This document shows positions 17,724-39,119 of a stretch of DNA of 64,000 nucleotides, in pieces. Numbering within the stretch: the stretch's first letter is position 1; each line of letters opens with the position of its first letter. Made by a program: the position numbers and the translations under genes. Source of the DNA: Escherichia coli. GTDB lineage: Bacteria > Pseudomonadota > Gammaproteobacteria > Enterobacterales > Enterobacteriaceae. The stretch is taken from the NCBI RefSeq assembly GCF_044324785.1, contig NZ_CP172127.1; one strand, given 5' to 3'. Under the pieces are notes generated by a model. That model worked only from the letters and a program-made list of their open reading frames with translations. It was not told the DNA's origin and searched no databases.

Positions 17724-18392
17724 TCCTTCCTCAATCTTGAGTAACCCCGTCGTTGAAGGGTTACTCAATTCATCCTGATTATACGCACTGCCATGGTGCA
17801 ACTGCTTCAAATTAAAACTCTGGTCTGACTTCAAATAATTATCATATTATTTATTTGCGTAACGGGATATCAGAAAAAGATATTTAGCCCATTAATTTAT
17901 TAGGATGTTTACATCGGATTTGTGATTAAGTGTGGTATTATTTATTAGCGAAACGTTTCTCTCTTGATTTTTTTGCGCATTCATCAATTTTTCTTATTTT
18001 AAATTTACAATACCTTTGGCGATTGACTTCTCTTTGGGGTGATTGATAGCCGTTAACTGACTGTTTTATGAGAAAAAGTGATATAACTTTTTATTCATTG
18101 CATAGCAGAAAATGTGATATTGCACGCACTATGTAATAACTTCTCCCATTGGCCTGGAACAACTGAACTTATTGAACTATGTTAGAAAATACGTCAGTTT
18201 AAGTATCTGCCTGAACTGGCAAGGTTAAGCACAATGATATATCGGCGCGTATTCCGTTGCATAAGTGTGCAAAAAAAGTGGAAGACGTATCGAGATTTGT
18301 GCGTCTGATCGAGACATGTTTAAAAATGGCTTGCCATAATTAACGTTGTATGTGATAACAGATTTCGGGTTAAACGAGGTACAGTTCTGTTT

Positions 18393-34716: not shown

Positions 34717-35412
34717 ATGCGAATTCTGGCTATCGATACCGCGACAGAGGCCTGCTCTGTCGCTCTGTGGAACGACGGCACTGTCAACGCTCATTTTGAG
34801 CTTTGCCCTCGTGAACATACTCAACGAATTTTACCGATGGTGCAGGATATCCTGACCACCAGCGGAACTTCCCTGACTGACATTAACGCTCTGGCTTACG
34901 GGCGCGGCCCCGGTAGCTTTACTGGCGTGCGCATTGGTATTGGCATCGCGCAAGGGCTGGCACTTGGCGCAGAGCTGCCGATGATTGGCGTCTCCACGCT
35001 AATGACGATGGCGCAAGGGGCGTGGCGCAAAAACGGCGCAACACGCGTGCTGGCAGCCATTGACGCGCGAATGGGCGAAGTTTACTGGGCCGAATATCAG
35101 CGTGATGAAAACGGTATCTGGCACGGTGAAGAAACCGAAGCCGTACTCAAACCTGAACTCGTTCATGAACGGATGCAACAGCTTTCCGGGGAATGGGTGA
35201 CGGTAGGTACAGGCTGGCAAGCCTGGCCGGATCTCGGTAAAGAGAGCGGGCTGGTTTTGCGCTACGGAGAAGTTTTACTGCCAGCGGCGGAAGATATGCT
35301 GCCGATTGCTTGTCAGATGTTTGCCGAGGGTAAAACGGTGGCGGTGGAACATGCCGAACCGGTTTATTTACGTAACAACGTCGCATGGAAGAAACTTCCG
35401 GGCAAAGAATGA
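34717..35412 (+). CDS. tsaB: tRNA t6A37 biosynthesis protein TsaB (YeaZ)
   Basis: 231-aa [21 protein letters not shown]... (inactive Kae1/TsaD paralogue fold). Confidence 0.9.
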
Positions 35413-35450
35413 ATCTTAAGAGTATGCCCTGAGAAAAAAGGAGTCGCATC

Positions 35451-36032
35451 ATGGCGGTTCAAAAGAATGTTATCAAAGGCATACTGGCAGGTACGTTTGC
35501 GCTAATGCTGAGCGGTTGTGTCACTGTGCCGGACGCCATTAAAGGCAGCAGTCCCACGCCGCAACAAGATTTAGTTCGGGTGATGAGTGCGCCGCAGCTG
35601 TACGTTGGTCAGGAGGCTCGCTTTGGCGGCAAAGTGGTTGCGGTACAAAACCAGCAAGGGAAAACCCGCCTGGAAATTGCTACCGTACCGCTGGACAGCG
35701 GTGCCAGACCGACGCTGGGAGAACCTTCTCGCGGGCGCATTTATGCCGATGTGAATGGTTTTCTTGATCCGGTCGATTTCCGTGGGCAGCTGGTGACAGT
35801 TGTCGGGCCAATCACCGGTACGGTTGACGGAAAAATCGGCAACACGCCCTATAAATTTATGGTGATGCAGGCAACAGGTTACAAACGTTGGCATTTAACC
35901 CAGCAGGTGATTATGCCGCCTCAGCCGATTGATCCATGGTTTTATGGCGGTCGTGGCTGGCCCTATGGCTACGGCGGATGGGGCTGGTATAATCCCGGCC
36001 CTGCGAGAGTACAAACAGTTGTAACTGAATAA
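35451..36032 (+). CDS. yeaY: Slp-family outer membrane lipoprotein YeaY
   Basis: 193-aa ORF with lipobox (LSGC) and Gly/Trp/Tyr-rich C-terminus. Confidence 0.85.
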
Positions 36033-36053
36033 TTGCTTGTTTTTAAAGAAAAA

Positions 36054-36087
36054 GAAACAGCGGCTGGTCCGCTGTTTCTGCATTCTT
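36054..36087 (+). terminator. Hairpin after yeaY
   Basis: gaaacagcgg-ctggt-ccgctgtttc perfect 10-bp stem followed by a T-rich tract (tgcattctt). Confidence 0.5.
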
Positions 36088-36146
36088 ACGGTAAAGATAA
36101 AAATAAATAGTGACGCGCTTCGCAACCTTTTCGTTGGGTAATTATC

Positions 36147-36164
36147 AAGCTGGTATGATGAGTT
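36147..36164 (+). promoter_or_regulatory. Candidate FadR operator upstream of fadD
   Basis: AAGCTGGTATGATGAGTT matches the FadR consensus AACTGGTCNGACCNGTT at about 11 of 16 informative positions; about 75-90 nt upstream of the fadD TTG start. Confidence 0.45.
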
Positions 36165-36236
36165 AATATTATGTTAACGGCATGTATATCATTTGGGGTT
36201 GCGATGACGACGAACACGCATTTTAGAGGTGAAGAA

Positions 36237-37922
36237 TTGAAGAAGGTTTGGCTTAACCGTTATCCCGCGGACGTTCCGACGGAGATCAACCCTGACCGTT
36301 ATCAATCTCTGGTAGATATGTTTGAGCAGTCGGTCGCGCGCTACGCCGATCAACCCGCGTTTGTGAATATGGGGGAGGTGATGACCTTCCGCAAACTGGA
36401 AGAACGCAGTCGCGCGTTTGCCGCTTATTTGCAACAAGGGTTGGGACTGAAGAAAGGCGATCGCGTTGCGTTGATGATGCCTAATTTATTGCAATATCCG
36501 GTGGCGCTGTTTGGCATTTTGCGTGCCGGGATGATTGTCGTAAACGTTAACCCGTTGTATACCCCGCGTGAACTTGAGCATCAGCTTAACGATAGCGGCG
36601 CATCGGCGATTGTTATCGTGTCTAACTTTGCCCACACTCTGGAAAAAGTGGTTGATAAAACCGCCGTTCAGCACGTAATTCTGACCCGTATGGGCGATCA
36701 GCTATCTACGGCAAAAGGCACGGTAGTCAATTTCGTTGTTAAATACATCAAGCGTCTGGTGCCGAAATACCATCTGCCAGATGCCATTTCATTTCGTAGC
36801 GCCCTGCACAACGGCTACCGGATGCAGTACGTCAAACCCGAACTGGTGCCGGAAGATTTAGCTTTCCTGCAATACACCGGCGGTACCACTGGTGTGGCGA
36901 AAGGCGCGATGCTGACTCACCGCAATATGCTGGCGAACCTGGAACAGGTTAACGCGACCTATGGTCCGCTGTTGCATCCGGGCAAAGAGCTGGTGGTGAC
37001 GGCGCTGCCGCTGTATCACATTTTTGCACTGACCATTAACTGCCTGCTGTTTATCGAACTGGGTGGGCAGAACCTGCTTATCACTAATCCGCGCGATATT
37101 CCAGGGTTGGTAAAAGAGTTAGCGAAATATCCGTTTACCGCTATCACTGGCGTTAACACCTTGTTCAATGCGTTGCTGAACAATAAAGAGTTCCAGCAGC
37201 TGGATTTCTCCAGTCTGCATCTTTCCGCAGGCGGAGGGATGCCTGTTCAGCAAGTGGTGGCAGAACGTTGGGTGAAACTGACTGGACAGTATCTGCTGGA
37301 AGGTTATGGCCTGACCGAGTGTGCGCCGCTGGTCAGCGTTAACCCGTATGATATTGATTATCATAGTGGTAGCATCGGTTTGCCGGTGCCATCGACGGAA
37401 GCCAAACTGGTGGATGACGACGACAACGAAGTACCACCGGGTCAACCGGGTGAGCTTTGTGTCAAAGGACCGCAGGTGATGCTGGGTTACTGGCAGCGTC
37501 CGGATGCTACCGATGAAATCATCAAAAATGGCTGGTTACACACCGGCGACATCGCGGTGATGGATGAAGAAGGATTCCTGCGCATTGTCGATCGTAAAAA
37601 AGACATGATTCTGGTTTCCGGTTTTAACGTCTATCCCAACGAGATTGAAGATGTCGTCATGCAGCATCCTGGCGTACAGGAAGTCGCGGCTGTTGGCGTA
37701 CCTTCCGGCTCCAGTGGTGAAGCGGTGAAAATCTTCGTAGTGAAAAAAGATCCATCGCTTACCGAAGAGTCACTGGTGACTTTTTGCCGCCGTCAGCTCA
37801 CGGGCTACAAAGTACCGAAGCTGGTGGAGTTTCGTGATGAGTTACCGAAATCTAACGTCGGAAAAATTTTGCGACGAGAATTACGTGACGAAGCGCGCGG
37901 CAAAGTGGACAATAAAGCCTGA
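36237..37922 (+). CDS. fadD: Long-chain fatty acid-CoA ligase FadD (TTG start)
   Basis: Track ORF 36171..37922 trimmed to TTG-initiated (M)[25 protein letters not shown]... (561 aa); AMP-binding motif [11 protein letters not shown] present. Confidence 0.9.
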
Positions 37923-37940
37923 GCGTTAAGTCAGTCGTCA

Positions 37941-37967
37941 GACGCCGGTTAATCCGGCGTTTTTTTT
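37941..37967 (+). terminator. Intrinsic terminator after fadD
   Basis: acgccgg-ttaat-ccggcgt hairpin followed by TTTTTTT. Confidence 0.85.
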
Positions 37968-37991
37968 GACGCCCACTAAAGAGAATACAAT

Positions 37992-39119
37992 TTGAATTAC
38001 CAAATGATTACCACGGACGATGCGCTGGCTTCTTTGTGTGAAGCCGTCCGTGCCTTTCCGGCGATAGCCCTGGATACTGAATTTGTTCGTACGCGCACCT
38101 ATTACCCGCAACTGGGTCTAATTCAACTTTTTGATGGTGAGCATCTGGCGCTAATTGATCCTCTCGGGATCTCCGACTGGTCACCGCTGAAAGCGATCCT
38201 GCGCGATCCGTCCATCACAAAATTTCTCCATGCGGGCAGTGAAGATCTGGAAGTGTTCCTCAATGTCTTTGGCGAATTACCACAACCCTTGATTGACACG
38301 CAAATCCTTGCTGCCTTCTGCGGACGCCCGATGTCATGGGGTTTCGCTTCCATGGTGGAAGAGTATTCCGGCGTTACGCTGGACAAGAGTGAATCGCGCA
38401 CCGACTGGCTGGCCAGACCGCTGACCGAACGTCAGTGTGAATACGCAGCGGCGGATGTCTGGTATCTGTTACCGATCACCGCAAAGCTTATGGTAGAAAC
38501 GGAGGCCTCCGGCTGGCTACCTGCGGCGCTGGATGAATGCCGCCTGATGCAAATGCGTCGTCAGGAAGTCGTTGCACCGGAAGATGCCTGGCGTGATATT
38601 ACCAATGCCTGGCAGTTACGCACACGCCAACTGGCCTGTCTGCAACTGTTAGCCGACTGGCGACTGCGCAAGGCGCGGGAGCGCGATCTGGCGGTGAACT
38701 TTGTCGTGCGTGAAGAGCATTTGTGGTCGGTAGCGCGTTATATGCCGGGAAGTTTAGGCGAACTGGACAGCCTGGGCTTATCCGGTAGCGAAATCCGCTT
38801 TCACGGTAAAACGCTGCTGGCGCTGGTGGAAAAAGCGCAGACATTGCCGGAAGAGGCCTTACCGCAGCCGATGCTTAACCTGATGGACATGCCGGGTTAT
38901 CGTAAAGCGTTTAAAGCGATTAAGTCGTTGATTACTGACGTGAGCGAAACGCACAAGATCAGCGCCGAATTGCTGGCATCGCGTCGGCAAATCAACCAAC
39001 TGCTGAACTGGCACTGGAAACTGAAACCGCAGAACAATTTGCCGGAGCTGATTTCCGGCTGGCGTGGTGAGCTGATGGCGGAAGCATTACACAATTTATT
39101 GCAGGAATATCCGCAGTAA
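37992..39119 (+). CDS. rnd: Ribonuclease D
   Basis: 375-aa ORF with DEDDy 3'-5' exonuclease and HRDC regions; recognised as Rnd. Confidence 0.9.
   Translation: MNYQMITTDDALASLCEAVRAFPAIALDTEFVRTRTYYPQLGLIQLFDGEHLALIDPLGISDWSPLKAILRDPSITKFLHAGSEDLEVFLNVFGELPQPLIDTQILAAFCGRPMSWGFASMVEEYSGVTLDKSESRTDWLARPLTERQCEYAAADVWYLLPITAKLMVETEASGWLPAALDECRLMQMRRQEVVAPEDAWRDITNAWQLRTRQLACLQLLADWRLRKARERDLAVNFVVREEHLWSVARYMPGSLGELDSLGLSGSEIRFHGKTLLALVEKAQTLPEEALPQPMLNLMDMPGYRKAFKAIKSLITDVSETHKISAELLASRRQINQLLNWHWKLKPQNNLPELISGWRGELMAEALHNLLQEYPQ

Follow-up and report, generated by a model that had tools for sequence, protein, structure and literature searches.

The distal FadR site upstream of Escherichia coli fadD lies in the hairpin of the probable yeaY terminator

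Introduction

The control region of fadD in E. coli raises the question whether a single short stretch of DNA ends the transcript of one gene and regulates the next, and, if so, which of the two functions has been kept in evolution. An earlier note on this DNA had claimed that a FadR-like operator precedes fadD and that a perfect hairpin further upstream, which also resembles a FadR site, may be both the yeaY terminator and a second operator. The window analysed here is the whole stretch of 64,000 nucleotides (64 kb), and positions are given in its numbering.

Both FadR sites have long been known and the terminator end is already present in a public dataset. In the 2012 paper of Feng and Cronan (PMC3460868) the words "terminator", "hairpin" and "yeaY" are absent, and the overlap of operator and terminator is not mentioned there. 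What is added here is the explicit link between operator and terminator, together with comparative evidence on which of the two functions is conserved.

Results

Locus and identity to K-12

Region 36040-36236 is the intergenic stretch between yeaY and fadD, whose role in the control of E. coli fadD is well characterised. The upstream gene, yeaY (35451-36032, plus strand), encodes a Slp-family lipoprotein, is defined by its open reading frame and by the RefSeq annotation of matching E. coli genomes, and has its transcript end at the hairpin described below. The downstream gene, fadD (36237-37922, plus strand), encodes the acyl-CoA synthetase and starts with TTG; its 561 amino acid translation is 99% identical to E. 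coli FadD and the annotation agrees. Both flanking genes are those of the earlier note; the fadD start is at 36237, not at 36238. The segment 35400-36700 was matched in 5,425 of 5,426 complete E. coli genomes, with the plus-strand order tsaB, yeaY, fadD, rnd. As the 204 bp intergenic region is 100% identical to that of K-12 BW2952 and of O157:H7, the published K-12 results on FadR apply base for base. The locus is that of the K-12 operators O_D1 and O_D2 (Black et al. 1992; PMC3460868; PMC4259882), without any sequence difference, and the gel shift probes match exactly.

An Rfam search of 35300-38300 (E up to 1) gave no match in the intergenic region; the sole match was the small RNA sroD (RF00370, 115 bits) at 37881-37966 on the plus strand, which overlaps the 3' end of fadD and coincides with a strong 3' end in Term-seq tables. 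In strain PEC301 an ISApl1 element (IS30-like; locus L085 1440-2414) is inserted at about window position 36103, between the hairpin with the distal FadR site and the CRP site, and puts approximately 1.1 kb between the hairpin and the fadD promoter.

The fadD promoter and its proximal operator

The fadD transcription start has been placed 60 bp upstream of the start codon (PMC3460868), which corresponds here to the A at 36177. The -10 region is found at 36164-36172 (TAATAT/TATTAT, the choice of hexamer being our assignment) on the plus strand; the pair TTAATA/TATCAT proposed by a promoter scan (36163-36192) was set aside as it does not fit the published start site. CRP-cAMP binds the fadD promoter at a class I position, and ArcA has a site that touches one of the FadR sites (PMC3460868). 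The probable CRP site is AGTGACGCGCTTCGCA (36109-36124, plus strand), centred near -60.5, which matches TGTGA-N6-TCACA at 8 of 10 positions, its exact placement being approximate. This block is near-invariant in the 53 aligned species (mean column entropy 0.12 bits). A further block in the 5' untranslated region, GGGGTTGYGATGACGAC (36195-36213), is near-invariant in the 53 Enterobacteriaceae intergenic regions, with conservation equal to that of the operator and the CRP site; CpxQ was considered as its explanation and dropped, given that the CpxQ preprint reports FadD to be unaffected.

FadR sites were scored with a matrix derived from the PMC4259882 probe sequences of five independent sites other than those of fadD (fadL1, fadL2, fadBA, fabA and fabB). 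The good consensus match claimed by the earlier note, AAGCTGGTATGATGAGTT at 36147-36164, was found there, and the operator within it, O_D1 (AGCTGGTATGATGAGTT, 36148-36164, plus strand, -29 to -13), scores 13.05 bits and ranks second among the 127,968 17-mers of the window. It agrees with the 17 bp FadR consensus (aaCTGGTCnGACC(T/A)Gtt, from PMC9329746), and by sequence alone the match is compelling. It occupies the promoter spacer, from -35 to -10, and overlaps core promoter elements, a position that fits repression. Its CTGGTA core is invariant in all 53 aligned Enterobacteriaceae, the mean column entropy of the operator is 0.09 bits, and in most of 80 Enterobacterales loci the site is found at the same distance from the start codon (approximately -89).

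The highest scoring match to the FadR matrix in the entire window lies away from fadD; it is CTCTGGTCTGACTTCAA (17818-17834, plus strand, 15.4 bits), in the intergenic region of about 670 bp between yebO and yobF. We know of no report of a FadR site between these two genes. The positions given above and below for the two fadD operators (-29 to -13 for O_D1, -115 to -99 for O_D2) are reportedly those of Black et al. 1992 and are consistent with a transcription start at 36177.

The probe fadD-FadR2-F (GTAATTATCAAGCTGGTATGATGAGTTAATATTATG) is identical to window 36138-36173 and was bound with relatively high affinity (Zhang et al. 2014, PMC4259882). In the published gel shifts FadR bound at this operator is released by long-chain acyl-CoA, the probe sequence being identical to the window (PMC4259882, PMC3460868).

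The distal FadR site

According to Feng and Cronan (2012, PMC3460868) the fadD promoter has two FadR sites 68 bp apart whose affinities differ by more than 10-fold, and long-chain acyl-CoA abolishes the gel shifts. The distal site, O_D2 (GGCTGGTCCGCTGTTTC, 36062-36078, plus strand, -115 to -99), is documented by the gel shift probe covering 36054-36086 and by the cited footprints. That probe, fadD-FadR1-F (GAAACAGCGGCTGGTCCGCTGTTTCTGCATTCT), is the hairpin itself and is identical to the window over these positions (Zhang et al. 2014, PMC4259882). The second operator which the earlier note suspected inside the stem-loop (GCTGGTCCGCTGTTT) is therefore a published FadR site, detected by footprint and by gel shift. 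The DNase I footprints at both fadD sites are those of Black et al. 1992, as cited in PMC3460868; the footprinting which the earlier note had proposed as a check was thus in print more than 30 years ago, with both sequences protected according to that citation.

The sequence of the distal site resembles the consensus in one half only. The left half, CTGGTC, which consists of the hairpin loop and the first base of the stem, and G10 match the consensus, and the right half is degenerate. With the FadR matrix the site scores 6.8 bits and takes rank 99 in the window, so that on sequence alone its resemblance to a FadR site does not exceed chance; its status rests on the published binding experiments. 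Nor is its position one from which repression is expected, the centre being at -107. A 2022 review (PMC9329746) calls this position surprising for a repressor site and describes its in vivo role as untested.

The fadL promoter is comparable to that of fadD in having two 17 bp FadR sites, a modest 2-3-fold repression and inputs from CRP and ArcA (PMC3460868). The arrangement differs, as in fadL the two sites have equal affinity, are separated by 8 bp and both lie close to the start, whereas those of fadD are about 68 bp apart with a weak distal site at about -107 (PMC3460868).

A technical point concerns the binding data. Both strands of the 33 nt distal probe (36054-36086) fold to a DNA hairpin of about -11.7 kcal/mol, compared with -0.7 kcal/mol for the proximal probe. 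The annealed distal probe may therefore be present partly as a hairpin with CTGGT single-stranded, which would lower the apparent binding, and short palindromic gel shift probes for this site should be used with the warning that they may self-fold. The footprints, done on longer DNA, are untouched by this caveat.

The yeaY hairpin and its conserved pairing

The earlier note had described a perfect hairpin, GAAACAGCGG-CTGGT-CCGCTGTTTC, at 36054-36078. It is present as described, and its stem extends by one pair (36053/36079) to 11 bp with a 5 nt loop, which gives AGAAACAGCGG-CTGGT-CCGCTGTTTCT (36053-36079, plus strand). The hairpin starts 21 nt 3' of the yeaY TAA stop codon. For its 25 nt RNA core the calculated folding energy is -14.5 kcal/mol (z = -3.9). 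The 64-kb window has only seven perfect hairpins with a stem of 10 bp or more, against 0.1 expected from shuffled sequences, and the other six resemble terminators.

For the comparative analysis 80 species-representative loci were collected via FadD, in 79 of which yeaY lies upstream of fadD, and an alignment was made of 53 distinct intergenic regions from Enterobacteriaceae. In this alignment 98.5% of the cells of the 11-pair helix are paired, compared with just 39-68% in controls in which the helix was slid along the sequence. Compensatory changes on both sides are found in 4 of the 11 pairs (28 cells). None of 500 shuffles attains these values. Enterobacter (AGAGACAGCGG/CCGCTGTCTCT), Buttiauxella (GAGGCAGCGG/CCGCTGCCTC) and Cedecea (CAAACAGCGG/CCGCTGTTTG) provide examples of such stems. 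In Yersinia, Serratia and Rahnella, outside the Enterobacteriaceae, the corresponding position behind yeaY holds unrelated GC hairpins. The hairpin was also considered as a protein-binding palindrome, which was rejected because the sequence of the stem changes while the pairing is kept.

Probable termination at the hairpin

Like an intrinsic (Rho-independent) terminator, the hairpin has a GC-rich core stem (CAGCGG/CCGCUG), a short loop and a flanking A tract, follows closely on a stop codon and has an RNA 3' end 7 nt past the stem; its tail is U-rich in most relatives. Unlike typical terminators of this type, in E. coli its U tract is interrupted (UUUCUGCAUUCU), read-through is likely, and the DNA is also a protein-binding site. 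Of the 12 bases that follow the GC core, 8.1 are T on average; 39 of the 53 sequences have 8 or more, and relatives up to 10. Enterobacter has GTTTTTTT directly 3' of the stem. E. coli has 7 T of 12, and the clade of E. coli and Citrobacter has the weakest tail (6-7 of 12). On the plus strand of E. coli the tail (TGCATTCT / UGCAUUCU) has 4 T in 8, and a simple terminator scan calls the hairpin on the minus strand only.

A yeaY RNA 3' terminus is catalogued in the supplement of PMC10687069, where the entry for this locus gives a "Primary" terminus at MG1655 position 1889897 (1889899 in the second dataset; minus strand there) and the fold drawn by the catalogue shows the same hairpin. Counted from the yeaY stop (1889951 = 36032), 1889897 corresponds to 36086 and 1889899 to 36084, which puts the terminus at 36084-36086 on the plus strand of the window, and the catalogued end 7 nt past the last paired base of the hairpin. 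A yeaY 3' end was not found in the available part of the Term-seq tables of Adams et al., nor was a yeaY entry found in TERMITe. When sigma-E is overproduced, yeaY is up 2.8-fold, fadD 2.2-fold and rnd 1.5-fold (PMC2731931, on which paper the sigma-E link is based here). This decreasing series suggests appreciable read-through, and termination would be at best partial.

From the compensatory changes and from the catalogued 3' terminus 7 nt after the stem we conclude, in support of the earlier note, that the hairpin is the yeaY terminator and that it is conserved across the family; that the 3' end arises by termination is what we infer from these data. In E. coli the terminator is probably leaky.

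The mapped 3' end could also be a processing product, left by 3' exonucleases that trim the transcript back to a stable hairpin. The poor U tract of E. coli, the signs of read-through (PMC2731931) and the absence of the end from the accessible tables of one Term-seq study (Adams et al.) are in line with this explanation, but a spacing of 7 nt between stem and end is usual for intrinsic terminators, and in most relatives this hairpin is followed by a canonical U tract, and we regard it as rather unlikely. Less probable still, and in our view doubtful, is that the hairpin serves mainly the opposite strand, or both, and stops antisense transcripts running from the fadD promoter region toward yeaY. 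It is true that the scan calls only the minus strand (11 bp stem, tail TTTTTCTTT), where the hairpin followed by TTTTTCTTTAAAAA scores better than on the plus strand, that the fold is as stable as the plus-strand fold, and that in E. coli the 12 bases preceding the GC core include 10 A; this A tract is, however, less conserved in the alignment (mean 7.3 of 12, with 8 or more in 25 of 53) than the T tract on the other side (mean 8.1, with 8 or more in 39 of 53), and in the part of the 3'-terminus table (PMC10687069) that spans the fadD and yoaB termini the only entry in between is that of yeaY, with none on the other strand. We know of no minus-strand promoter near the hairpin.

Conservation of the distal site compared with that of the hairpin

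Both FadR sites and their spacing have been described as "largely conserved" in Citrobacter, Klebsiella and Enterobacter by Feng and Cronan (PMC3460868). For the distal position this statement needs qualifying, since it is the hairpin that persists there. The TGGT of the distal half-site is formed by loop bases 2-5, whose entropies (1.34, 1.95, 1.02 and 1.19 bits) rank with the highest of the region. There are 19 loop variants, and CTGGT is present in 9 of the 53 sequences, carried by E. coli, C. amalonaticus, Pluralibacter, one Kosakonia, Phytobacter, Entomohabitans and one Buttiauxella. Other loops include CTCAG in Enterobacter, CTCGT in the C. youngae group and CTTGT in Raoultella.

The loop also varies within E. 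coli. Over 36036-36096 the window sequence recurs unchanged in 4,018 of the 5,425 complete genomes, and in 1,023 (about 19%) the sole difference is a CCGGT loop, due to a T/C polymorphism at 36065 which leaves the stem intact. CCGGT removes the T of the CTGG core, and this core is invariant in seven aligned E. coli FadR sites. The comparative data thus argue against conservation of the distal site as a FadR site, with the caveat that its loss in other genera does not prove absence of function in E. coli.

Discussion

The earlier idea of one element acting as yeaY terminator and as second operator is borne out insofar as two activities are documented in the same stretch of DNA. The terminator is the evolutionarily conserved function and the distal operator a lineage-restricted overlay, known as an in vitro site. 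We are confident of this account as a whole, that is, repression from the proximal operator, a yeaY terminator and a minor distal overlay.

The mechanism that we propose is as follows. FadR represses fadD mainly from the proximal operator at 36148-36164, which its dimers bind and where, in the spacer of the promoter, they block RNA polymerase. Long-chain acyl-CoA, the product of FadD, frees FadR from the operator, and CRP-cAMP bound near -60 activates the promoter. The hairpin at 36053-36079 is primarily the intrinsic terminator of yeaY, whose RNA would fold so that most transcripts stop about 7 nt past it. As duplex DNA, its loop and 3' arm form in the E. coli lineage the FadR half-site CTGGTC, weakly bound in vitro. 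The share of the distal operator in the control of fadD is probably small.

It is less easy to say what, if anything, binding at the distal site does. Three explanations were ranked, with incidental or minor binding as the most probable, an auxiliary operator next and a roadblock as a speculative third. The first, which we favour tentatively, is that the loop of the terminator happens to spell a half-site and that FadR binds it in vitro at high protein concentration without regulatory effect. This is consistent with the 99 positions in the 64-kb window which score as high or higher, with a loop that is free to vary while the stem covaries, with the loss of the core T in 19% of E. coli genomes, and with a centre at -107, beyond the range of direct occlusion. 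What speaks against purely incidental binding is that two methods, footprint and gel shift, report it (PMC3460868) and that CTGGT is the commonest loop (9 of 53). The latter, together with 31 of 53 loops ending in GT, suggests that some constraint on the loop may exist.

The second explanation, possible but in our judgement less probable, sees in the distal site an auxiliary operator kept by selection, where FadR at -107 would cooperate with FadR at -21, for instance by looping, or would interfere with CRP or the alpha-CTD, and so tighten repression. FadR does bind the site in vitro and is released by acyl-CoA (PMC3460868, PMC4259882), and the centre-to-centre distance of 86 bp corresponds to about 8.2 helical turns. 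Among the nine sequences whose loop is CTGGT, seven have 90 nt between the centres of the loop and of the proximal operator, one has 88 nt and one has 100 nt, the last adding about one turn. These regularities have to be set against a total FadR repression of fadD of just 2-3-fold (PMC3460868), a half-site with a weak matrix score, core bases that are the most variable of the region between species and polymorphic within E. coli, and a position which the 2022 review found surprising (PMC9329746).

In the third explanation FadR on the terminator DNA would be a roadblock that strengthens a leaky yeaY terminator, and sigma-E driven transcription of yeaY would enter fadD mainly once acyl-CoA has removed FadR. 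The decreasing rise of yeaY, fadD and rnd on sigma-E induction (PMC2731931), the weakest T tail (6-7 of 12) in the E. coli and Citrobacter clade and an RNA 3' end (36084-36086) just past the FadR site are all compatible with such a gate. The proposal is nevertheless improbable, being entirely inferential: FadR has a low affinity for this site and a weakly bound protein makes a poor roadblock, the Citrobacter species that share the weak tail mostly have no CTGGT loop, and FadR bound at the proximal operator could have the same effect.

The overlap of operator and terminator offers a simple explanation for the weak affinity and the odd position of the distal site, and the natural E. coli strains with a CCGGT loop are ready-made material for testing it. 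The FadR site near -100 may exist only because the loop of the yeaY terminator spells a half-site, and its function, if it has any, may be that of a roadblock on a leaky terminator, an idea to which we give little weight. If it were true, FadR on the terminator would set how much sigma-E driven yeaY transcription continues into fadD, and would in this way link envelope stress to fatty-acid activation.
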